This document shows positions 4,597 to 28,108 of a DNA stretch of 28,108 nt, one piece after another. The translations under genes were made by a program, and so were the position numbers. A model generated the notes under the pieces. It was not told the DNA's origin. It worked only from the letters and a program-made list of their open reading frames with translations, and searched no databases. Location: IMG/VR virus record IMGVR_UViG_2534682170_000012. One strand, given 5' to 3'. The DNA is from a virus (lineage: Duplodnaviria; Heunggongvirae; Uroviricota; Caudoviricetes). Within the stretch, counting starts at the first letter, position 1. Each line of letters begins with the position of its first letter.

Positions 4597-4986
4597 ATGA
4601 TTGACGCTCATGACTTCACAAGATGGGTGCGCACACAGGACACCCGTCTGGCTCCCGTTCTTCAGGGATTATTTGATCTCTACATCCGTAGTCGTGACAA
4701 CAGAGCACGCACTACAAAACCGGAGAATGCAGACACCCTTTATTTCACAGTAGACGACTGCTACCGCGTGGACTTAACACCACACGGGCTGGCGTTGCGC
4801 TGCCTGACACCGCATGGCGAATCACTGCTGGCGTATTACGACTCCCCGACCTCCGTATTTGCGGCAATGCTGGCGCATCACACTGCTGGCGGGTGTGCCT
4901 CGCTGAGTGAATACACCGCTGAATTTAACCGCCTTTCCACCCTCTTCTCGCAGGAGTGGCAGCGCGTGACGGGATACCAGCCATGA
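4597..4986 (+). CDS. Hypothetical early protein immediately upstream of, and coupled to, the replication gene
   Basis: 129 aa ORF; its stop overlaps the gpA start (ATGA at 4983-4986). Confidence 0.45.
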   Translation: MIDAHDFTRWVRTQDTRLAPVLQGLFDLYIRSRDNRARTTKPENADTLYFTVDDCYRVDLTPHGLALRCLTPHGESLLAYYDSPTSVFAAMLAHHTAGGCASLSEYTAEFNRLSTLFSQEWQRVTGYQP

Positions 4987-7748
4987 GTGAGTTTGCATGG
5001 AGCTGGAATGAACCACGGCCAGCCATTGATCCGGACAGATTTACGGAGCGCAGGCAGGAAACTGAAACCGAGCTGCAACGCGCCATCCGTTACTACCTTG
5101 AGGCGGACAAAAAGGCCCGTAAAGAACAGGAAGCGAAGGAGGAAGCCTTTTTCGCACAATCCACCGTGGGTAAAAAACTCATGGCATCCCTTGAGGAAGC
5201 CGGACAGCGTGAAAAGCTGGCACAAAGCATCATCAGCAAGCGTCAGGCAACAGAACAAGACCCGGTGGCCCGTGCTTTTGCCACACTGAAGGTGCTTCCC
5301 GTTTATCTGCGTGAACCTCTGAGCCGCCACCTCTCTTTCCTGCGCAAAAAACAGGAATCCGATCGTCAGAAAGGCAAAAAGAGCTGGCAGGCTGAACGCT
5401 ACGCGCGCGGAACCCTGCGCAAAATATTCGTACGTCTGGACCGCACCGACAGCCGTTGGCTGACACCGGGTTATCGGTCCCTTGCCGGACGTGAACGCCT
5501 GGACGATTTGCTTTCCCTGCCGCAACTCAACAAACACCAGATACAGACGCTGGCCACCATGACGGCGGCGATGTTCAGCAGCACCTTCGAAAAACTCTGC
5601 GATGGTTTTGGCGCGACCGATGGCGAGCTGACCATGGATGTAACGCTGAAGGCGTATCAGATGCTGGCCCGCATGGCGTTACACTTGCACGCCATGCCTC
5701 CGCATTATGACGCACTGACAACAGACAAAGACCGGAGGAACGAACCGGACACAGAACTGCTGCCGGGCGCAATCCTTCGCCTGACCTGTGCGGAATGGTG
5801 GAAACGCAAACTGTGGCTGTTACGTTGCGAGTGGAGAGAAGAACAACTCCGCGCCGCCTGTCTGGTTTCCAGAAAAACATCGCCCTATTTGAGCCAGGAC
5901 GCGTTAAGCGAGTTTCGCGCACAGCGCGAGAAAACACGCGATTTCCTGAAAAGTTTCATGCTGGAAAACGAAGACGGGTTCACGATTGATCTCGAGACGG
6001 TGTATTACGCGGGAGTAAGTAACCCGGTTCACCGTAAGGCAGAAATGATGGCCACCATGAAGGGGCTGGAACTTCTGGCCGAAGCCCGTGGCGACAAAGC
6101 GGTGTTTCTGACTGTCACCTGCCCGTCAAAATACCACGCCACAACAGAGAACGGTCATCCGAATCCCAAATGGAACGGGGCCACCATGCGCGACTCCAGC
6201 GATTACCTGGTTAACACGTTTTTTGCGGCGGTCCGCAAAAAACTGAACCGCGACGGTCTTCGCTGGTATGGCATCCGCACGGTGGAGCCTCACCATGACG
6301 GCACCGTGCACTGGCATATGATGGTCTTTGCTCATCCGGAAGAAATCGACAGCATCGTGGCCATCACCCGCGATATTGCCATTCAGGAAGACCGCCACGA
6401 GCTGGGCAATGATATTACTCCGCGCTTTAAGGCGGAGTATGTCGACGGCTCAAAAGGCACACCAACCAGCTATATCGCGACCTACATCGGAAAGAACCTG
6501 GACAGCCGCGCCGTGGATGGCATCGACCCGAAAACGGGCAAGCCACGCGTTGACCACGAAACCGGAAAATCAATGGCCGAGAGTGTGGAGCGCGCCATCG
6601 GCTGGGCGCGCCTTCATCGGGTCCGCCAGTTCCAGTTCTTTGGCATCCCCTCCCGTCAGGTGTGGCGTGAACTGCGCCGCCTTGCCAGCCAGATGGCACG
6701 CAACCCGGAAGGCCCGCAACGACTGAAAGATGACGCAATGGATGCGGTACTCGCTGCCGCCGATGCCGGGTGTTTTGCCACCTACATTGAAAAACAGGGC
6801 GGCGTACTTGTTCCACGCAAAGACTACCTGATTCGCACCGCCTACGACCTCGCAGATGAGCTGAATGATTACGGCGAACAGAGCGTACAGATTTACGGGA
6901 TCTGGTCACCACTCATCGGGGAATCCTCCCGTGTGTGCACGCATCCGGATAACTGGAAACTGGTAAGACGTAAACCGGAAACGGAAGACAGCGCCCGCGA
7001 AAATGGTTTTGACCTTCAGGGCGGCCCTGCCGCCCCTTGGACTCGTGGCAATAACTGTCCCCGTGTACAGGAAACGGACAACAACGGGACAGAACAGCCG
7101 GAAGAACGGCCAGCACCGTGGCCGCGGCTTCCTGAAGGCGTTGACGTGAATGAATGGATGCGCTCACTGAAACGGCACGAACGCCGGGCACTGATGCGTT
7201 CGCTGCGTGACAAACAGGCAAAAAACAGCAGTGATGAAATGCAGAACTGGACACAGAGCCGCAAACAGCCACAGCCTTTGCCTGATAACCACGAGTTACT
7301 CGCTAAAGAATGGCGGGAGTCTGCTGAATCTCTCGGCCTGCATATCGGTGAACAGCAGATGCAGCACCTGTTACGAGGCGGCAGTCTGTACGTTGGCGGC
7401 AGCATCATTGCACCGCAGGGATTTGAAATTGTACGCAAACAGGATACCCGCCCGGACAGCCGAATCACGCAGCTCTGGCAACGCCTGAGTCGTAATCACG
7501 GCGTAAGCAGCACGGAGATCCGCCATAACCCGGTCGCCAGCTATCTGGAACAACTAGAGGCATCAGACCCTGAAGCCGCCGCACGCCTGGCATCCACACT
7601 TCAGCAAGACCAGAACACCATGAAAACACCCGTTACCGTACTTTCTGACATGCTGCGCGCCATCCGCGACGCAGAGCACGCACAGAGAATCAGTGAAACC
7701 ACTAAACATGCTCGCAAAAAAATCAGTTTATTGCATCGAACACGATAG
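4983..7748 (+). CDS. A: Rolling-circle replication initiation endonuclease, P2 gpA family
   Basis: VEPHHDGTVHWHMMVF (HUH-type motif) and paired tyrosines YIATYIGKN (Tyr codons at 6471-6473 and 6483-6485) match the remembered P2 gpA active region. Start taken as the ATG at 4983 rather than the ORF-track start at 4956. Confidence 0.88.
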   Translation: MSEFAWSWNEPRPAIDPDRFTERRQETETELQRAIRYYLEADKKARKEQEAKEEAFFAQSTVGKKLMASLEEAGQREKLAQSIISKRQATEQDPVARAFATLKVLPVYLREPLSRHLSFLRKKQESDRQKGKKSWQAERYARGTLRKIFVRLDRTDSRWLTPGYRSLAGRERLDDLLSLPQLNKHQIQTLATMTAAMFSSTFEKLCDGFGATDGELTMDVTLKAYQMLARMALHLHAMPPHYDALTTDKDRRNEPDTELLPGAILRLTCAEWWKRKLWLLRCEWREEQLRAACLVSRKTSPYLSQDALSEFRAQREKTRDFLKSFMLENEDGFTIDLETVYYAGVSNPVHRKAEMMATMKGLELLAEARGDKAVFLTVTCPSKYHATTENGHPNPKWNGATMRDSSDYLVNTFFAAVRKKLNRDGLRWYGIRTVEPHHDGTVHWHMMVFAHPEEIDSIVAITRDIAIQEDRHELGNDITPRFKAEYVDGSKGTPTSYIATYIGKNLDSRAVDGIDPKTGKPRVDHETGKSMAESVERAIGWARLHRVRQFQFFGIPSRQVWRELRRLASQMARNPEGPQRLKDDAMDAVLAAADAGCFATYIEKQGGVLVPRKDYLIRTAYDLADELNDYGEQSVQIYGIWSPLIGESSRVCTHPDNWKLVRRKPETEDSARENGFDLQGGPAAPWTRGNNCPRVQETDNNGTEQPEERPAPWPRLPEGVDVNEWMRSLKRHERRALMRSLRDKQAKNSSDEMQNWTQSRKQPQPLPDNHELLAKEWRESAESLGLHIGEQQMQHLLRGGSLYVGGSIIAPQGFEIVRKQDTRPDSRITQLWQRLSRNHGVSSTEIRHNPVASYLEQLEASDPEAAARLASTLQQDQNTMKTPVTVLSDMLRAIRDAEHAQRISETTKHARKKISLLHRTR

Positions 7749-7793
7749 AAATATAGAGCTAAGGCCGCCCTAGGAATAAGGAGGCCTTGAAAA

Positions 7794-8603
7794 TCAACCT
7801 ATCTTCTTATGAAGTAAAATTAATTTCTGTATTAATTTGGAATGAAACATTGATATATCAGAAATTCTTATTTCATTAGGCGAGTCTATATGATTGGAAA
7901 CTTCTTCCTCCAAGGAGTCACAAATACTTTCTAGATTTTCAATATCTGCATTTAATTCTGGAAAACTATTAAACAAATATAATGAATCCCGTAACTCTCC
8001 TAGTTTTGGTAAAAGAGTATTACTGAATACACTAAGAAACTCCTCTTCTGATAATGCCATGGAGTTTTTAAAACTTTGCACAACATCGAATGCCAACCCA
8101 TTAATTTTAGGCATAATTACTTCTCTTACCCAATACCCTTCATTAATAGCTTCTTTACGTTCTTTTCTATGTTGAACACAAGGAATAACAAAGGATGAAA
8201 CTAAAGCAAATAAAGAGATGCCAATAGAAATCCACTCTGGACCATTTTCCGGAACCTTTACAATATTATATATATCATAGGAATTTGGAACATCTTTGAA
8301 ATAATTAGCAAATAAATCTTTTTTGTTATCCCTTGCCAGAGATAACTTATGAAAGGTGTCGTTTGCCTTTTCACAAAACATCAAGCCATCATTCGGGTTT
8401 CCGGATAACAAAAACGGTGATGATATACCACTAAGTCCTGAATCGGAAATATAAAAAGGCGTGTTTGGATAAAGTGATTCATTACATTCAATGTTTTCTT
8501 TATTGGAAAAATCTGTCACAGAGCAAGCTGCGGGGAATATAAAAAAAATGACAGACAGCGCTGTCATTTTGATTTGAAAAATATTTTTAAAAGAAGGGAA
8601 CAT
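7794..8603 (-). CDS. Cargo gene 3: membrane protein with signal-peptide/lipobox-like N-terminus and one internal TM helix
   Basis: 269 aa, AT-rich. N-terminal hydrophobic segment ends in PAAC; internal hydrophobic helix WISIGISLFALVSSFVIPCV. Start 8603 overlaps gene 2; an alternative ATG is at 8565-8567. Confidence 0.5.
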   Translation of the reverse strand: MFPSFKNIFQIKMTALSVIFFIFPAACSVTDFSNKENIECNESLYPNTPFYISDSGLSGISSPFLLSGNPNDGLMFCEKANDTFHKLSLARDNKKDLFANYFKDVPNSYDIYNIVKVPENGPEWISIGISLFALVSSFVIPCVQHRKERKEAINEGYWVREVIMPKINGLAFDVVQSFKNSMALSEEEFLSVFSNTLLPKLGELRDSLYLFNSFPELNADIENLESICDSLEEEVSNHIDSPNEIRISDISMFHSKLIQKLILLHKKIG

Positions 8604-8931
8604 TTTTATGTAAGCCTCTCCTTACAGCTCTATCTAATTCAGAAAGCATACCTTCTTTATATTCACGACCATCAAGTACAGTGCGACTATAAAATTCGCT
8701 AGGCGAAGAAAATTTCGGCAAAACCGTTTCAAGCATACCTAGAAAGTATGAGCTTGATACAACAATTCCCTTGGGGATCAATAGATATAATCTATCATTA
8801 CTGGTTGTGCAAAATTTCCCTATATTAAAGTAATCATAGGCCTGGCGCCCATTAGAACGTCCAGCAAAAAGTTTCTTGTTACTATCTTTTACTAACTTAT
8901 TGAAATCTATGGTGATGTCAGCCATTTTCAT
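8587..8931 (-). CDS. Cargo gene 2: small STAS-like protein (anti-sigma-factor-antagonist-like)
   Basis: 114 aa; Ser-rich VVSSSYFLG (8737-8763) resembles the phospho-acceptor motif of SpoIIAA/RsbV-type STAS domains, and the size matches. GAGGA RBS; starts 10 nt after the gene 1 stop. Confidence 0.45.
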   Translation of the reverse strand: MKMADITIDFNKLVKDSNKKLFAGRSNGRQAYDYFNIGKFCTTSNDRLYLLIPKGIVVSSSYFLGMLETVLPKFSSPSEFYSRTVLDGREYKEGMLSELDRAVRRGLHKNVPFF

Positions 8932-8941
8932 GTACCTGTCC

Positions 8942-10321
8942 TCAAGTTCGCTGGGTGGCGTTTTCTGGTAGAGGAAAACGAATATTGATCATAACTCCAG
9001 GAAATCGAGCATCCTTCATACGCTTAAGATAGTTGCGATCCGGTTCAGATTCAAGCCCTACATCATTAAAAGGGTAAGTAAAAATGTCACTTTCCTCGTC
9101 ATTAACCAACCTTTGCTTTAATTTATATGATCCATCAAAGTTAATATGAGTACTACCAGATATTAAAGTCATTTTTATCCCACCTTTAATATCTCTTCCC
9201 ATTTTTTTAAGATTATCATGCATATCTTGAAATAACTTCAATAATTCAATTGTTCCGGTGCCAGAACTGTCAGTTTCTTTCTCGTTTTTACAACTCACCC
9301 GCCCTTGCAAGGCCGCTACTGTTGTTAATCCTTCCTTAAACATACCCTTTTTCTTAATATGCTTATTTATGTATGGATTAACTTGTTGACTTAATGAAAA
9401 ATGATCCTCAGGTAAATTATCAAAAGTTTCGCTGATAGTTTTCCCAAAATTGAAAACAGCCAACTCACATATGGGGTTTCGTACGTTATTATTAACAAAA
9501 CCTCTCAAATACCAGCGTGGGCGTTGCTCTAACCCACAATGCCGCTCCGCATTATCAAGGAGTTCCCCCATGCAGGAAGTTAAATGCTTTTCTGCCTCAT
9601 GTACAAGTTTTAAATTATGATCATTTAAGCATTCGTTTATGTATGCGGTAAATTTTTCAGCAGTGACATTTTTTCTGTCATGGGCAAAGGCAGAAGCATT
9701 CTCCTTTCCGATACTATCAGCAGAGAAGATTCGTTTCTTCGGATTCGCTTTTTTCGATGCTTCAGTAGAGTCCAGAACTTTACCTGGTGCAGCATTACTA
9801 ATCTCTTTTACAAGCCCGACATCCCTGATAATTTCAAGATACTGTTCATCTTTAGGGTAGATACCATTAATCTGAATCATCGTATCTTTGAAATTTATAT
9901 TACTTTGCCTTGCTGCTGTAAGAGCAACACCTAATAGACACTCAAGACCAAGACAGTGTTTTTTGTTTTTCTTGTAATCAAAAATATATGATTTCCATTT
10001 ACCTCTTGCAATTAATTTTGTGGCTGCACTAATAAATAGCAGAGATTTCTCTGGATTGTCATATAAGTCAAAATATTTAGGTATTAATATCTTCTCTGCG
10101 TCACGACGAAGAATTGATGAGTCATACTCTTTTATAATCGATATATTTTCAATGAACGTAGCGACTTGGTTTTGGACAGGAGTTGTTTCATCGGAAAAAC
10201 GAAGACTACCATTTTTCTCTTGCGCAGGCTTTTTTTTCTTAGCTCTCTCAACGCTACGAAGAAATCGCAACCATCCACGTAAAAAGGTTCTTTTAGAATC
10301 TTCTTTATTGATTTTTTTCAT
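8942..10321 (-). CDS. Cargo gene 1: large protein with GHKL/anti-sigma-kinase-like ATPase motifs
   Basis: ORF-track frame 8942-10417 begins at a TTG; the first ATG is at 10319-10321 (MKKINKED...). ELLDNAERHCG (9539-9565) resembles the N-box of SpoIIAB/RsbW-type Bergerat ATPases; Gly-rich DSSGTGT (9239-9271) lies downstream. Strongly AT-rich. Confidence 0.5.
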   Translation of the reverse strand: MKKINKEDSKRTFLRGWLRFLRSVERAKKKKPAQEKNGSLRFSDETTPVQNQVATFIENISIIKEYDSSILRRDAEKILIPKYFDLYDNPEKSLLFISAATKLIARGKWKSYIFDYKKNKKHCLGLECLLGVALTAARQSNINFKDTMIQINGIYPKDEQYLEIIRDVGLVKEISNAAPGKVLDSTEASKKANPKKRIFSADSIGKENASAFAHDRKNVTAEKFTAYINECLNDHNLKLVHEAEKHLTSCMGELLDNAERHCGLEQRPRWYLRGFVNNNVRNPICELAVFNFGKTISETFDNLPEDHFSLSQQVNPYINKHIKKKGMFKEGLTTVAALQGRVSCKNEKETDSSGTGTIELLKLFQDMHDNLKKMGRDIKGGIKMTLISGSTHINFDGSYKLKQRLVNDEESDIFTYPFNDVGLESEPDRNYLKRMKDARFPGVMINIRFPLPENATQRT

Positions 10322-10400
10322 TTCCAAATGTTCCTGCAAAGTTAACGTAGCCCACAAGGCGCTAAGTATACTTTCTGCTATATTTTTTTCACTATACAAA

Positions 10401-10428
10401 TGCACAATAGTGCACAAATTTGCACAAT
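10401..10428. repeat. Three direct TGCACAA repeats at 10-bp phasing upstream of the cargo operon; a fourth copy at 10493-10499
   Basis: TGCACAA at 10401, 10411 and 10421, read directly. Possible operator or packaging-recognition element. Confidence 0.3.
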
Positions 10429-10800
10429 TTTTTTGAACGACTTTTTGCCCTTCCGGCCCGCATGGTGGCTGGATCCGTCAAGGATCCGTGCGTGCACAAA
10501 AAAACGCATTTTTTCTGCGCGCAGGTGACGGGGGAACAGCCCGCGTTTCAGGGGGTAAATAGCATCCCCTGAACGATGTCGCAGCGACACAACAGAATGG
10601 CTGTATTTCTCACGCTGAGCGTGAAAAAGACGTGAGGGCTTTTGATTTGATGGGGTGAAAGGTAAGGCCGTCAAAATCGCACTGAGACGGCGAGAACATG
10701 CAGTCAACGCGGTGGGATTGCGTAAGAGTCTGACTGTCGATGATGGCAATCAGCAGGAAAGCGTCGTGAAATTATCTGACTGATACAGGAGCTGGAGAGT

Positions 10801-22060: not shown

Positions 22061-24226
22061 ATGAGTACCACAACACGAAAATTTAAAACCGTTATCACCG
22101 ATACGGGTGCAAAAAAATTAGCTCAGGCAGCCGCGCCAGATGGTAAGCCTGTCCGCCTGACTCATATGGCCGTGGGCGACGGTGGCGGCGCGTTGCCCAC
22201 ACCAGACAGTAAGCAGACCCGTCTGGTGCATGAGGTGTGGCGACACACTGTTAATCGCGTCATCCTGGACGCAACACATCAGAACCGCATTATTGCGGAG
22301 CTGGTTATTCCTCCTGAAACGGGCGGATTCTGGATCCGGGAAATTGGTGTATTTGATGAGCACGGCGATTTAATCGCGGTGGGCAATACTGCCGAAAGTT
22401 ACAAACCAACCGTTGCCGAAGGGTCCGGACGTGCACAAACATTTCGCACTATTCTGACCGTATCCAGCACTGCCACCGTGGCGCTTACCGTGGATAACAC
22501 CATGGTGATGGCCACAGTGGATTACGTGGATGACAAACTGAAAGAGCATGAACAGTCACGACGTCACCCGGACGCCTCGCTGACCGCAAAAGGCTTTGTT
22601 CAACTCAGTAGCGCCACTAACAGCGATTCTGAAACGCTGGCTGCAACGCCGAAAGCGGTTAAGGCCGCGTATGACCTGGCTAACGGAAAATATACCGCTC
22701 AGGACGCCACGACGGCACGAAAAGGGATAGTCCAGCTCAGCAGTGCAACCAACAGCACGTCTGAAACGCTGGCAGCGACACCAAAAGCGGTTAAGGCGGT
22801 AATGGATGAAACGAACAAGAAAGCCCCATTAAACAGCCCGGCACTGACCGGAACGCCAACAACACCAACTGCACAACAGGGAACGAATAATACCCAAATC
22901 GCAAGCACGGCTTTTGTTATGGCCGCGATTGCCGCACTTGTAGACTCTTCACCTGACGCACTGAACACGCTGAACGAGCTGGCGGCGGCGCTGGGCAACG
23001 ACCCGAATTTTGCGACCACCATGACTAACGCGCTTGCGGGTAAGCAACCGAAAGATGCCACCCTGACGGCGCTGGCCGGGCTTGCTACTGCGGCAGACAG
23101 GTTTCCGTATTTTACGGGGAATGATGTTGCCAGTCTGGCAACCCTGACAGAAGTCGGGCGGGATATTCTTGCGAAATCGACCGTTGCCGCTGTTATCGAA
23201 TACCTCGGTTTACAGGAAACGGTAAACAGGGCTGGTAACGCCGTGCAAAAAAATGGCGATACCTTGTCCGGTGGGCTTACTTTTGAAAATGACTCAATCC
23301 TTGCCTGGATTCGAAATACTGACTGGGCGAAGATTGGATTTAAAAATGATGCCGATGGTGACACTGATTCATACATGTGGTTTGAAACAGGCGACAACGG
23401 CAATGAATATTTCAAATGGAGAAGCAAACAAAGCACCACAACAAAAGACCTGATGAATCTTAAATGGGATGCTTTGTCTGTCCTTGTTAAAGCCCTTTTC
23501 AGCAGTGAAGTAAAAATATCGACAGTCAATGCACTAAGGATATTTAATTCATCTTTTGGTGCTATTTTTCGCCGTTCTGAAGAATGTCTTCATATCATCC
23601 CTACCCGAGAAAATGAGGGGGAAAATGGCGATATAGGGCCACTACGCCCCTTTACGCTTAATCTCAGAACTGGTCGCATAACTATGGGGCATGGTCTGGA
23701 TGTTACAGGAGATATATTTGCAAACCGTTTTGCAATTAACAGTAGTACCGGCATGTGGATTCATATGCGTGACCAGAATGTTATTTTGGGACGCAATGCG
23801 GTATCCACCGATGGTGCACAGGCATTACTTCGTCAGGACCATGCTGATCGCAAATTTATGATTGGTGGGCTGGGAAATAAGCAATTTGGCATCTACATGA
23901 TTAATAACTCAAGGACAGCTAATGGCACCGATGGTCAGGCGTACATGGATAATAACGGGAACTGGCTTTGCGGCTCGCAAGTTATTCCCGGCAACTATGG
24001 CAATTTTGATTCCAGATATGTGAAAGATGTTCGACTTGGTTCACAGAAATATTATGGAGTGAACAACTGGCAAACATGGAATTTCCAGTGCCCGTCAGGT
24101 CATGTATTGTCTGGTATTAATGTTCAGGATACAGGGTCCAACTCTGCCGATAATATAGCGGGCGTTTATTGCAGACCCGTTCAAAAGTATATAAATGGCA
24201 CCTGGTATAATATAGCGAGCGTTTAA
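22061..24226 (+). CDS. H: Tail fibre protein, P2 gpH family, with variable C-terminal receptor-binding segment
   Basis: The N-terminal two-thirds is near-identical in long stretches to remembered P2 gpH ([23 protein letters not shown] repeats, [30 protein letters not shown]). The C-terminal third diverges and ends [11 protein letters not shown]. Confidence 0.9.
23193..23218. repeat. gix/hix-like recombination site, left, inside the tail-fibre gene at the constant/variable junction
   Basis: TTATCGAATACCTCGGTTTACAGGAA matches the reverse complement of the right site at 24 of 26 positions. Confidence 0.7.
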
Positions 24227-24227
24227 T

Positions 24228-24755
24228 ATGATGCACTTAAAGAACATAAAAGCGGGTAATGCTAAAACACTGGAACAGTATGAGTTAACAAAGAAGCACG
24301 GAGTCATCTGGCTTTACTCTGAGGACGAAAAAAACTGGTATGAGGAAGTGAAAAACTTTCAGCCAGACACCATAAAGATTGTTTACGATAAAAATCAGAT
24401 TATAGTCGCTATCACCAGAGATGCTTCAACGCTTAATCCTGAAGGTTTTAGCGTTGTTGAGGTTCCTGATATTACCTCCAACCGACGTGCTGACGACTCA
24501 GGTAAATGGATGTTTAAGGATGGTGCTGTGGTTAAACGGATTTATACGACAGATGAGCAGCAACAACAGGCAGAATCACAAAAGGCCGCGTTACTTTCCG
24601 AAGCAGAAAGCGTTATTCAGCCACTGGAACGCGCCGTCAGGCTGAATATGGCGACGGATGAGGAACGCGCACGACTGGAGTCATGGGAACGCTACAGTGT
24701 TCTGGTCAGCCGTGTGGATACGGCAAATCCTGAATGGCCACAAAAGCCTGAATAA
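24228..24755 (+). CDS. G: Tail fibre assembly chaperone (P2 gpG / Tfa family)
   Basis: 175 aa directly after H; N-terminal region matches the inverted paralogue at 24784-25284. Confidence 0.85.
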
Positions 24756-24760
24756 AAATT

Positions 24761-24780
24761 AAGGCCCGCTATCGGGCCTT
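24761..24780. terminator. Bidirectional hairpin terminator between the convergent fibre-chaperone genes
   Basis: Perfect inverted repeat AAGGCCCG-ctat-CGGGCCTT flanked by A/T-rich runs. Confidence 0.5.
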
Positions 24781-24783
24781 GTC

Positions 24784-25284
24784 TCATTCAGGTTGTTCGG
24801 GAAACGTTACTGGCAGGCTGGAAGTGTCTGTAGATTCGACTTTCTGCGCAAAGAGCATCCACTCTGTTAATTTTTGTTTATTCTCGTCGGAAATGATGCC
24901 CAGCCGTAGCTGTGAGTCCCATAGCTGGGTTTTATCCCTGACGAGCTGTAGCAGGCTTTGCTTTTCATTTTCCGCCTGCTGCCTCTGCTCTTCCTCGGTA
25001 TAAGTTCGCTTTACCACTACGCCATCTTTGAACATCCATTTACCCGAAATGTCAGCACGGCGATTTGCTGTAATATCAGGTAATTCAACGACGCTTGCGC
25101 CTTCCGGATTAATTGCTGAAACATCCTTTTCAATACAAATAATAACGCCGTTATGGCCATAGACCATTTTCAAAGTGTCTGGCTGGAAATTCTTTTGTTC
25201 CTCATACCAGTTTTTTCCATCATCTGAATAAAGCCATTTGATGTTAAATTGCTTTGTTAGCTGGTATTGCTCTTTCGTTCTCAA
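24784..25284 (-). CDS. Alternative tail fibre assembly chaperone (Tfa'), inverted orientation
   Basis: 166 aa; clearly paralogous to G ([31 protein letters not shown]). Confidence 0.8.
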
Positions 25285-25339
25285 AATCGGTGGAGCTGCA
25301 TGACAAAGTCATCGGGCATTATCTGAACATAAAACACTA

Positions 25340-26311
25340 TCAATAAGTTGGAGTCATTACCCCCGCGTTATACCACGTCCCATTAATGCAATACTGAATT
25401 GGCCTTGCCTGAGTTGTATCAATTAATTCATCACGGTTTCCGTTAACTGAACCCGTAACGACATAACCTGACCTGTCAGACCAGCCGGGGCCTTTCCATG
25501 TCTGAACAGATGACAGACCGCCAAGGCGAATACCTGTAATAAACCTTGAGTTACATTCTGCCTGCGTATATGCACCAACATCCCCCGCAGAGGGTTTGCG
25601 TGTTGTGGTGTAAAACTCTGACCAGTTAGCTTCAAAGCCATAACCATCACGCGCTGAACGATAAAAAATACCGCCGTTCCTGTAATTCACGCGGAACTGT
25701 ACAGCAGGGCAACTCCCCGCATTCATATTGAAGTGGAGGATTAATGTCGATGCACCACTGATATCTGCATCATAAACACCGCTATTCCAGTTCCAGCCAA
25801 CAGCTTTATCATTTGCGACCCTGCGTCCTGTTTGCCCTAAAGCAAATGCAGGCTGCTGGTTTTTCGTGTTGTAGTCTCGTCGCCAGCCAGGAGCGTAAGC
25901 ATCACCATGATTAATATAAGTGAATTGAGCGTTAGTAATTCCGCCACCGCTGGACGTGCTCGGCGTAGTAACGCGTATGGTCATTGCGCCGCGAGTGCCA
26001 ATAACTTCCACCACAGCACCTGCAAGACAAATATTTCCGCAACCTGTATCTGTAATAACCTTATTATTTGCATAAGCCCATGAGCCTTTGCACATCCAGT
26101 AAGGATGGTTAAATGCCCCCTGACTCTCCAGCCACGAAATAAATTGCGCAGTTGTCCAGACCTGACTATCGCCACCAATATTCAGCCATGCGCTATATGC
26201 GCGGCAGGCACCAATGTTTTTGGTGAAGGTATCTTTTCCCGGAATATCTGCGCCGTTCTGGTTTTTCTGTAATGCGCCAGAAGCCTGATTTACCGTTTCC
26301 TGTAAACCGAG
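25340..26311 (-). CDS. Alternative tail-fibre C-terminal segment, start-less; would be fused in frame to H after inversion
   Basis: Hand translation of the minus strand from the right gix site gives LGLQETVN, then a novel segment ending [15 protein letters not shown]. The codon just upstream is a stop, so it has no own start. The ORF-track ATG at 26095 is internal. Confidence 0.7.
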
Positions 26312-26322
26312 GTTTTAGATAA
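26297..26322. repeat. gix/hix-like recombination site, right
   Basis: TTCCTGTAAACCGAGGTTTTAGATAA; one mismatch to the Mu gix sequence as I remember it; inverted relative to the left site. Confidence 0.7.
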
Positions 26323-26376
26323 TGGCGGTTTCTGGCCTGCATGGCATGATTTGTGCTTTTGGACGGGAGATTCAGC

Positions 26377-26703
26377 GTGCTGATTGGCTATGTAAGGGTA
26401 TCAACAAATGACCAGAATACAGACCTGCAACGAAACGCTCTTGTTTGTGCAGGATGTGAACAAATATTTGAAGATAAATTAAGCGGAATAAGGACAGGCC
26501 GACCTGGATTAAAACGTGCTTTAAAGCGCCTTCAAAAAGGTGACGCACTGGTTGTCTGGAAACTGGACTGACTGGGTCACTGTATGCGGCATCTTGTCGT
26601 GCTGGTGGTGGAAGCCTGGAAGAAGTATCGGGTGTTGCTGAACCGTGTTAATACAACAACTGCACCGGATATTGAATGGCCAACAGGACCCATTATCGAA
26701 TAG
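26377..26703 (+). pseudogene. Serine DNA invertase (Gin/Hin/Pin/Cin family) pseudogene: premature stop after about 65 codons, decayed downstream part, C-terminal DNA-binding region missing
   Basis: GTG start with GGGAGA RBS; N-terminus LIGYVRVSTNDQNTDLQRNAL...LVVWKLD matches the invertase catalytic domain (Ser in VRVSTNDQ). In-frame TGA at 26569-26571 where the family has Arg. The same frame then reads [14 protein letters not shown], a degenerate version of LGRSMKHLISLVGE, and ends at TAG 26701-26703. Confidence 0.7.
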
Positions 26704-26714
26704 TGCATTACGAA

Positions 26715-26747
26715 CTGCAGGATATTATATGGGATAATATTCTGCAG
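26715..26747. terminator. Near-perfect 14-bp-arm hairpin (CTGCAGGATATTAT-atggg-ATAATATTCTGCAG) followed by a T-rich run
   Basis: Read directly; lies between the invertase remnant and the 3' end of the diguanylate cyclase gene. Confidence 0.4.
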
Positions 26748-26776
26748 TTTATTGGGGCTGTATTTTAAAAAGGTGT

Positions 26777-28108
26777 TTATTTTGAGTGAGTTATCACCTT
26801 GTTTTTTCCGGTTCTTTTGGCTTGATATAACGCTTTATCGGCATTGACTAACATTTCAGATGGACTGAGATTATTCTCTTTTGAAGTAAAGCAACCAATA
26901 CTGACAGTTATTTTCTCAGGTCCATGCGATAATAATTTTTCCGAGCATTGCTCTTCAATGTTTTTTCTGATTCGCTCTGCAATTGATAGCAAGAGCTTTT
27001 GAGTATTACCTTTAATGATAATACCGAACTCCTCACCGCCTAAGCGCCCTAATATATCCTCTTTCCTGATGGATTTTTTTATTATTCTGGTAACCATTAC
27101 TATGACTTGATCACCCATATGATGCCCCCATTTGTCATTGATGCTTTTGAAATTGTCAATATCTAACATTATTACTGAGAAATCATGGTGTTTTGATATA
27201 TTCTTCAATGAGTCAATAAAGTATCTTCTATTGTATGTATTCGTTAGTGGATCATGAATTGCCATATGATTAGCATGATTTAATTTCCTGAAAACATAAT
27301 ACATGAGTGTTGAAATGATATAAATCATTGATATCAATTCAAGAAATTTTGTCATGTACCATGCAGGATGGGATTTATCAATAAAATACAATAAAATTAG
27401 ATTATTGCATACTGACACTATACTAATAAGTATTATACACAACCATATTTTTGAGTAATTACGTATGCTGATGCATGAGCTGATAAGTAATACAAGCCAA
27501 AATACTGATATTATTTTGGTGTACACGATATTCCACGTCGGCAAATGACGATTCAGCGAGTATTGTATAATATTAAGACTATATTTTATATTGTCACTGC
27601 TTAGATTTTTTGCTACAAACGGAGTAATAAAAAGAATTAATATTGACAAAACAACAATTATTATGTTTCTTTTATCTTCTAAAACACTTTTGTTTTTAAC
27701 ATTGGTGGAATAAACAGCCAGAAAGATTATAGATATAAAGCTGAACTGACGGAATAGATAATATATTGCGATATCATTTGATTTCTGATAGATTGTAGAT
27801 AAATCGTTACCTAACGGAGATAAAGAAATAATAGCCACTTCTAATAAATAATACGTGTTGCTCAAAAACGCGAATGAAAGAATTAAGAGATAACTTTGTC
27901 TCTGATTAGAAACATAGTAAAGCAATAGAAAAATAAAAATCATCAGGTTTATGAAAAAAAGCCCAATAATGAAAACACTATAACTTATTTGTGTTGTTTG
28001 TGTTATGTATATTCCATTATTTGCATGCAGTAACAAAAATATAATAGAGATGCATGAAAATAAAAAGATGAAGATTTTTATTTTTATAGGTACCTGGTTG
28101 ATAATCAT
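26777..28108 (-). CDS. Membrane-bound diguanylate cyclase: multi-pass N-terminal membrane domain plus GGDEF domain (YcdT/DgcT-like architecture)
   Basis: C-terminal GGDEF domain with HDPLTNTYNRRYF, RLGGEEFGIII (GGEEF active-site motif) and DKALYQAKRTGKNKV. N-terminal half is highly hydrophobic and AT-rich. The ORF start codon is the last 3 nt of the window, so the true start may lie beyond it. Confidence 0.8.
   Translation of the reverse strand: MIINQVPIKIKIFIFLFSCISIIFLLLHANNGIYITQTTQISYSVFIIGLFFINLMIFIFLLLYYVSNQRQSYLLILSFAFLSNTYYLLEVAIISLSPLGNDLSTIYQKSNDIAIYYLFRQFSFISIIFLAVYSTNVKNKSVLEDKRNIIIVVLSILILFITPFVAKNLSSDNIKYSLNIIQYSLNRHLPTWNIVYTKIISVFWLVLLISSCISIRNYSKIWLCIILISIVSVCNNLILLYFIDKSHPAWYMTKFLELISMIYIISTLMYYVFRKLNHANHMAIHDPLTNTYNRRYFIDSLKNISKHHDFSVIMLDIDNFKSINDKWGHHMGDQVIVMVTRIIKKSIRKEDILGRLGGEEFGIIIKGNTQKLLLSIAERIRKNIEEQCSEKLLSHGPEKITVSIGCFTSKENNLSPSEMLVNADKALYQAKRTGKNKVITHSK

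Follow-up and report, generated by a model that had tools for sequence, protein, structure and literature searches.

A three-gene cassette in the gpA-portal slot of a P2-like prophage resembles kinase-STAS switches, with a membrane protein in place of the toxin

The DNA analyzed here (28,108 nt; IMG/VR record IMGVR_UViG_2534682170_000012, Caudoviricetes), which we refer to in its full length as the window, is a P2-like prophage with an integrase, a helix-turn-helix (HTH) repressor, a Phage_GPA protein, and portal, terminase, capsid and tail genes. At the old/tin hotspot, which lies between gpA and the portal gene, it carries a cassette of three genes, denoted genes 1-3 (Table 1). The cassette is an AT-rich cargo of 2.6 kb, with a GC content of 0.33 compared with 0.55 in the flanks. 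This slot of P2-like phages houses old/tin and many validated defense systems (Rousset et al. 2022, PMC9122126). An initial annotation had proposed that gene 1 encodes a protein of the GHKL superfamily resembling the anti-sigma serine kinases SpoIIAB and RsbW.

Table 1. Positions of the cassette genes and their features in the window
Feature	Position	Strand	Description
Gene 1 ("K-like")	8942..10321	-	459 aa: basic N-terminus, STAS-like domain and SpoIIAB/RsbW-like GHKL domain
Basic N-terminal region	10172..10321	-	aa 1-50; 15 K/R vs 6 D/E; helix 6-29
STAS-like domain	9707..10114	-	about aa 70-205; order b-b-a-b-a-b-a
Bergerat-fold (GHKL) domain	8945..9616	-	aa 236-459
N-box ELLDNAERH (E253, N257, H261)	9539..9565	-	from conservation and alignments to SpoIIAB, VapK and CapK
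G1-box-like NFGKT (N291, G293)	9437..9451	-	Asn at the canonical adenine-binding Asp position
Enlarged ATP-lid insertion	9272..9436	-	aa 296-350; ~55 residues between G1 and G2 boxes
G2-box DSSGTGT (G354, G356, T357)	9251..9271	-	at N-terminus of helix 356-373
Gene 2 ("S-like")	8587..8931	-	114 aa, probable DUF4325/STAS-like protein; starts 10 nt past gene 1 stop; GAGGA ribosome-binding site
S59-S60-S61	8749..8757	-	candidate phospho-acceptor of gene 2; N-terminus of helix 60-67
Gene 3	7794..8603	-	269-aa membrane protein; 17-nt overlap with gene 2
Gene 3 transmembrane helix	8169-8234	-	around aa 124-145
Terminator-like hairpin	7759..7773	-	~20 nt past gene 3 stop; consensus scan only
Putative control region	10365..10427	-	sigma-70-like hexamers 10392-10365, preceded by three TTGTGCA repeats 10401-10427

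The longest minus-strand open reading frame (ORF) at gene 1 spans 8942..10417 and begins with a TTG. The initial annotation had pointed out this start as well as the first ATG at 10319-10321; both are there, and the ATG product is 459 aa long. We rejected the TTG at 10417 and preferred the ATG at 10321 because the RefSeq product is exactly 459 aa and all homologs start at the same MKK/MRK. That product (PGAP/RefSeq WP_000723541), encoded in a 100%-identical Escherichia coli chromosome, is the same protein.

An AlphaFold2 model of gene 1, built from 45 sequences (predicted local distance difference test 81.8, predicted template modeling [TM] score 0.81), contains the alpha/beta sandwich of the Bergerat fold, and within the GHKL superfamily its closest structural neighbors are the SpoIIAB/RsbW anti-sigma Ser kinases. 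The neighbors of the model also include STAS proteins (RsbV, scoring 8.8; TM1442, 8.3; RsbS, 7.7; SpoIIAA, 6.9), each with ~90 residues aligned at 2.1-2.9 A. Since the STAS and Bergerat folds differ, the STAS matches must stem from the N-terminal half of the protein. A single polypeptide thus holds both: the two fold classes come from one model, and the domain order comes from secondary structure. In the N-terminal half the modeled elements (strands 72-74 and 77-79, helix 90-106, strand 111-115, helix 124-139, strand 150-154, helices 159-177) run in the order of a STAS domain. A Foldseek search of the model against the PDB returned nothing significant (best E 0.05); the highest probabilities and TM-scores (0.54-0.61, normalized by target length) belonged to SpoIIAB.

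The GHKL motifs are strongly conserved in an alignment of 190 gene 1 family members, each at least 400 aa long. The proposed N-box, ELLDNAERH followed by C-G at 9539-9565 on the minus strand, corresponds to residues 253-261, and its E-x-x-x-N-A-x-x-H pattern of the GHKL/SpoIIAB-RsbW type is borne out by this alignment, with E253 and N257 kept in 190/190 members and H261 in 189/190. Finding the E...NA..H pattern is only mildly unusual (one occurrence in the six-frame translation of the window vs 0.15 expected from composition) and by itself is weak evidence; its conservation is strong evidence. The DSSGTGT stretch that had been suggested as a possible G-box is indeed a G2 box (residues 351-357; G354 and G356 in 190/190, T357 in 179/190), but the range first assigned to it, 9239-9271, included four extra residues (IELL) beyond the motif itself at 9251-9271. 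G293, F364, G389 and N419 are likewise present in all 190 members. The lid insertion has four near-invariant residues, Y317, H321, Q339 and S343, the last two kept in 189/190.

Sequence searches were far less informative. HMMER scans of gene 1 with Pfam, NCBIfam and PADLOC profiles gave no significant match, and the sole PHROGs match among the three cassette proteins was that of gene 1 to phrog_3364, a family of unknown function (E 2.4e-7). Among 45 homologs, three matched HATPase_c_2 (best E 0.007) and two matched HATPase_c (best E 0.041), none of them reaching the gathering score; models of the Pfam HATPase_c clan found no match in 10 distant members. Searches of PDB sequences with the full profile, the C-terminal domain alone and a C-domain profile yielded no GHKL match. 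An hhalign comparison of the family with a SpoIIAB profile was not significant, a weak test given the low diversity of that profile (Neff, its effective number of sequences, 1.5); the alignment places E46/N50/H54 of SpoIIAB on E253/N257/H261 and D81-x-G83 on N291-x-G293. These blanks, a best Foldseek E-value of 0.05 and a structural case built on a predicted model would be expected if the motif match were fortuitous and gene 1 were not a GHKL protein, which we consider very improbable. The HMMER check against Pfam HATPase_c that the initial annotation had called for gave no significant match, but the Bergerat fold that it named as the other outcome appears in the predicted model, and because this fold match is strong the assignment stands. 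The SpoIIAB/RsbW-type reading is therefore supported at the level of the predicted fold, together with motif conservation.

The gene 1 family is large. A word-indexed search found 59 clusters of homologs, all of them "hypothetical" and without Pfam domains, and 1173 representatives at 50% identity, mostly of 430-460 aa, came out of an exhaustive profile search (561 of them with E <=1e-30). The N-terminus is rich in K/R in all gene 1 homologs, suggesting a putative nucleic-acid-binding role. With regard to the STAS-like domain, our alignment to SpoIIAA puts residue C123 (9953-9955) at the phospho-Ser position of antagonists; of the 190 sequences, 94 carry D here, 49 C, 22 G and 21 S. Judging from these residues, the internal domain looks non-phosphorylatable, and acidic, phosphomimic-like in half of the family.

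The family of gene 2 has its own invariant residues: G24, R25 and G28 (N27 in 54/55 members), a [S/T]59-S60-S61-Y62 motif, and E98/R101/A102/R105. Within the motif, [S/T]59 is kept in 54/55 members, S60 in 53/55 and S61 in 55/55, making these residues a candidate phospho-acceptor. The best PDB sequence match of the gene 2 profile was the STAS antagonist TM1081 (E 0.42). Gene 2 of the window did not match Pfam DUF4325 (PF14213); its ortholog in a distant phage locus (L030, see below) did, with 34.3 bits vs a gathering score of 23, and the gene 2 profile matches that ortholog at E 2.7e-10. An hhalign comparison of the gene 2 and gene 1 profiles, which would bear on paralogy with the internal STAS-like domain, was not significant. 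Gene 3 begins with a hydrophobic signal/anchor, followed by a variable periplasmic part that is missing in some orthologs, the transmembrane helix, and, on the cytoplasmic side, a conserved helical domain that contains a W-x-R-E-V-x-x-P motif. It had no match in Pfam and only a chance-level match in PADLOC, where genes 1 and 2 had none; NCBIfam scans likewise yielded nothing usable for genes 2 and 3, and gene 2 of the window was unmatched in Pfam as a whole.

The three genes travel together. In all 29 sequence-checked loci with a gene 1 homolog (100% to 28% identity), homologs of gene 2 and then gene 3 follow in the same order, and three more loci agree by gene size and order alone. The strictly conserved three-gene cassette extends the initial annotation, as do the internal STAS-like domain, the G2 box and the Asp-to-Asn change in the G1 box. 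The cassette is carried by 23 of 5426 complete E. coli genomes. A full-length gene 1 homolog is present in 26 viral loci, and in 16 of these the cassette is in the same gpA-portal slot. Elsewhere, it adjoins type I restriction-modification (R-M)/AAA_15 genes (Vibrio) or, in an Aeromonas prophage, methylase, HNH and NERD genes; further copies lie near integrases or within a lambdoid prophage. Isolated phage genomes gave no match, including by tblastn with gene 1; all known copies thus come from prophages and metagenomic viral contigs. Pfam families of sigma factors or PP2C phosphatases were not found among the neighbors of the cassette in four annotated loci. The most distant triad that we found (locus L030, 4713-6980; gene 1 28% identical) is on a non-P2 phage contig, directly after ORFs whose translations resemble lysis genes. 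Its gene 2 is a canonical DUF4325 protein, and its gene 3, of only 170 aa, consists of a transmembrane helix and a cytoplasmic domain without the periplasmic part.

Upstream of gene 1, promoter-like sites are no more frequent than in shuffled sequence, so the control region is tentative. The three TTGTGCA direct repeats (10401-10427, minus strand) have an exact 10-bp spacing, and a fourth copy lies 66 bp further up at 10493-10499. The TTG start discussed above (10415-10417) falls within one of these repeats. The word is not enriched across the window (10 found vs 7.3 expected), and the phased cluster alone stands out; the repeats may serve a regulator as its operator.

For both domains of gene 1, the nearest solved structures belong to the SpoIIAB/SpoIIAA and RsbW/RsbV pairs, which share its N-box and G2-box logic. 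SpoIIAB and RsbW, however, are single-domain kinases (140-160 aa) that keep a sigma factor bound and depend on a PP2C phosphatase for their reset, whereas the cassette has neither a sigma factor nor a phosphatase gene, the kinase-like domain of gene 1 shares its polypeptide with a STAS-like domain, and no match to Pfam HATPase_c_2 exceeds the threshold. We found closer parallels in two systems described recently (Chambers et al., EMBO J 2026, PMC13373217). In the three-gene operon VapKSC, VapK (STAS+GHKL) phosphorylates the 116-aa STAS antitoxin VapS on S48, which frees the PIN toxin VapC, and the operon protects against phage Bas42 (PMC13373217). CapK, an anti-sigma-kinase-like HTH-STAS-GHKL protein, is switched on by single-stranded DNA (ssDNA) and phosphorylates the repressor CapS, a STAS protein with a winged HTH (wHTH), on S54; CapK and CapS control CBASS, Bub and Thoeris operons (PMC13373217).

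We compared the gene 1 family hidden Markov model (HMM) one-to-one with single GHKL proteins, using CapK and VapK sequences (and that of VapS below) from the supplement of PMC13373217. CapK scored best (7.5 bits, E 7.6e-5; best of 500 shuffles 3.5), followed by SpoIIAB (3.1 bits, E 0.0016), RsbW (0.9 bits, E 0.0073) and VapK (0.8 bits, E 0.0082; best of 500 shuffles 0.4); shuffles were run for CapK and VapK. An hhalign comparison keeps VapK in register with the family over 123 columns, from the N-box to the G2 box (E 0.073), placing E156/N160/H164 on the N-box, D190-F-G192 on the G1-like box and RGLG on the G2 box. Similarly, CapK ELIGNVRDH aligns with the N-box and SDSGLG with the G1-like box. 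The gene 2 family HMM matches VapS one-to-one at E 0.004, with VapS S48 placed on S60 of gene 2.

The cassette has much in common with VapKSC. Both are three-gene operons of the same order, headed by a protein that joins a STAS domain to an anti-sigma-kinase-like GHKL domain. Next is a ~115-aa protein, STAS-type in VapKSC and probably so in the cassette, in which the C-terminal helix and a Ser/Thr close to the beginning of helix 2 are conserved; the third protein is the presumed effector. The N-box, x-F-G, lid and G2 motifs of gene 1 and VapK are in register, and their C-termini are alike (FPGVMINIRF in gene 1, FEGTILNITL in VapK). Nonetheless, the third protein is a membrane protein with two hydrophobic segments and VapC is a PIN nuclease; gene 1 has 459 aa with a basic N-terminal extension and a ~55-aa lid insertion, and VapK has 302 aa; and VapK keeps the G1 Asp (VVDFGVG) that is Asn in gene 1. 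Sequence similarity is only marginal (E 0.008 for gene 1 vs VapK, in addition to the value for gene 2 vs VapS above). VapK relatives were not found in viral contigs, and plasmids gave two weak matches only.

CapK and CapS resemble genes 1 and 2 in that a STAS+GHKL fusion with an extra N-terminal module is directly followed by a STAS protein (in gene 2, a probable one) with a conserved Ser; the HTH domain of CapK stands at the position of the basic N-terminus of gene 1. The lid motif THALKNGGLS of CapK recalls TVAALQGRVS of gene 1, as read directly from the sequences, and the RGLGL G2 box on the CapK/VapK side corresponds to (R/S)G(Q/T)GT in the gene 1 family. On the other hand, CapS is a repressor with a wHTH and gene 2 has no DNA-binding domain, CapK retains the G1 Asp (ISDSGLG), and no immune operon lies downstream here, only the membrane protein and then phage gpA. 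VapKSC and CapK/CapS are the closest known systems, and the cassette looks like the same logic with a membrane protein replacing the PIN toxin.

On balance, we lean toward the view that genes 1-3 form one operon, a cargo of the P2 gpA-portal hotspot that would work like VapKSC with a membrane effector in place of VapC. In an uninfected cell, the small STAS protein (gene 2) would keep gene 3's cytoplasmic domain from acting. The kinase-like domain of gene 1 would be turned on by a cue from the phage; this may be ssDNA that binds between the GHKL domain and the basic N-terminus/STAS domain, and the K/R-rich N-terminus is the sole observation that bears on ssDNA. Gene 1 would then phosphorylate gene 2 at S60/S61, or capture it in a nucleotide-dependent manner, and the gene 3 protein so freed would damage the envelope and abort the infection. 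The missing phosphatase gene fits a one-way switch.

A different function, as a prophage regulatory or lysogenic-conversion module with no anti-phage role, seems quite unlikely to us. The cassette could then, for example, regulate host or prophage transcription in an anti-sigma-like way, or be an envelope-stress signaling device with the membrane protein as its sensor, a part that the variable periplasmic region of gene 3 could play; the nearest solved relatives of gene 1 are transcription-controlling anti-sigma kinases, and CapK/CapS is itself a transcriptional regulator and not an effector. But gene 2 lacks any wHTH extension, no sigma factor gene is associated with the cassette, and DefensePredictor scores gene 2 as defense. 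The location also argues against a regulatory role, as the cassette occupies the slot of old/tin and many validated defense systems and is an AT-rich mobile cargo that recurs in unrelated prophage slots and beside R-M genes.

What weighs against a VapK-like kinase is the residue at the adenine-binding position. Position 291, the site of the G1-box Asp, is Asn in 173 of the 190 family members, Ser in 14 and Asp in two, and the D-x-G-x-G pattern is not present in gene 1: its first Gly is invariant, and the second is Thr or Ser. In Hsp90 and GyrB, ATP binding is lost when the corresponding Asp is changed to Asn. With Asn at this position, the kinase activity and ATP use of gene 1 come into question, which is the main uncertainty of our interpretation, and its use of ATP is putative. 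Gene 1 might thus have the GHKL fold and be no kinase, acting by sequestration only, as a pseudokinase or a switch for another nucleotide. As binding partners, its own STAS-like domain, the small STAS protein and a target would replace one another with no phosphotransfer, comparable to the holding of a sigma factor by SpoIIAB and RsbW. The Asn is nearly family-wide, whereas all members keep the Mg/phosphate residues E253, N257, G354 and G356; residue 123 of the internal domain varies with no conserved Ser at the phospho-acceptor position, and no PP2C gene is present in or near the cassette where neighbors have Pfam annotation. Still, absolute conservation of the catalytic-type Glu and the Mg-binding Asn is unexpected for a dead enzyme, gene 2 has two invariant Ser residues at the phosphorylation site of VapS and CapS, and CapK and VapK, with the same architecture as gene 1, are active kinases. 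We regard sequestration without phosphotransfer as possible but doubtful. If the cassette is a new abortive-infection system in which a CapK/VapK-like STAS-GHKL sensor controls a membrane-damaging toxin through a small STAS antitoxin, the nearly family-wide Asn could mean that this sensor uses a nucleotide other than ATP (e.g., a 6-oxopurine nucleotide) or is a nucleotide-gated pseudokinase; this combination is unlikely, to our mind. If true, it would be a departure from all characterized GHKL kinases.

The cassette and one of its genes appear in earlier catalogs. Row 19 of Table S5B in Rousset et al. (2022, PMC9122126) lists the HHpred-derived domains "HATPase_c" and "DUF4325" with 155 occurrences and "1 TM in protein 3." This row is the same cassette: over the stretch given there, proteins 1 and 2 match the translations of the window, and protein 3 differs at two residues. 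The row is a domain label with no proposed mechanism, and the cassette sequences were not found in the tables of tested systems of that study (S2A/S2B). The P2 hotspot also holds Rst_3HP ("hp + hp + hp"), which protects against P1 (Rousset et al. 2022, PMC9122126) and likewise consists of three unannotated genes; we rejected identity with the cassette, as the protein sequences differ and there is no PADLOC match. In the DefensePredictor supplement (PMC13092281), the gene 2 protein (WP_000763711) is labeled "predicted novel defense gene," and none of the three cassette accessions occurs in the text of its tested-system table that we could consult. Chambers et al. (2026, PMC13373217) make no mention of a membrane-protein variant of the kinase-STAS module, and literature searches on DUF4325, on STAS with anti-phage and on partner-switching with phage found nothing relevant. 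The domain label thus dates from 2022 and the mechanistic paradigm from 2026; the membrane-effector version is uncharacterized and lacking from annotation libraries.

We noted several further features of the prophage. The replication protein (4956-7748, plus strand; 930 aa) has a Phage_GPA domain over residues 194-518 only, and its C-terminal ~400 residues had no Pfam match. Between the integrase and the HTH repressor, at 1008-2035 on the minus strand, lie a 115-aa DUF2511 protein and an ORF of 216 aa without a match in Pfam; this may be another accessory slot. A second tail-fiber C-terminal fragment (gp37_C) with its own Caudo_TAP chaperone lies inverted at 24784-26095 (minus strand), after the fiber/chaperone genes at 22061-24755 (plus strand), and the related genome WS1933D has a frameshifted recombinase beside the corresponding tail-fiber genes; the inverted module looks like an invertible host-range switch. 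The tail-fiber module is followed by a gene for a MASE4-GGDEF diguanylate cyclase (26777-28108, minus strand). After the fiber genes one would expect the P2 tail genes and ogr, but the window lacks them; in WS1933D, the region corresponding to 26100-28108 has further tail genes instead (tape measure protein, "phage tail protein"), and here the prophage could be cut short or fused to another element. Part of a query covering 24700-28108 has matches at thousands of E. coli genome positions, suggestive of a repeated element at the junction.

The cassette is small, comes from E. coli and is directly testable with standard phage panels. No Pfam, NCBIfam or PADLOC model covers its gene 1 family (1173 clusters at 50% identity), which defense-annotation tools therefore miss. 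The near family-wide Asn at the adenine-binding position poses a sharp biochemical question on nucleotide use in GHKL proteins. If our preferred reading is true, the kinase-STAS switch, described in 2026 for transcriptional control and a PIN toxin, would also drive a membrane effector, in the best-studied prophage defense hotspot of E. coli.

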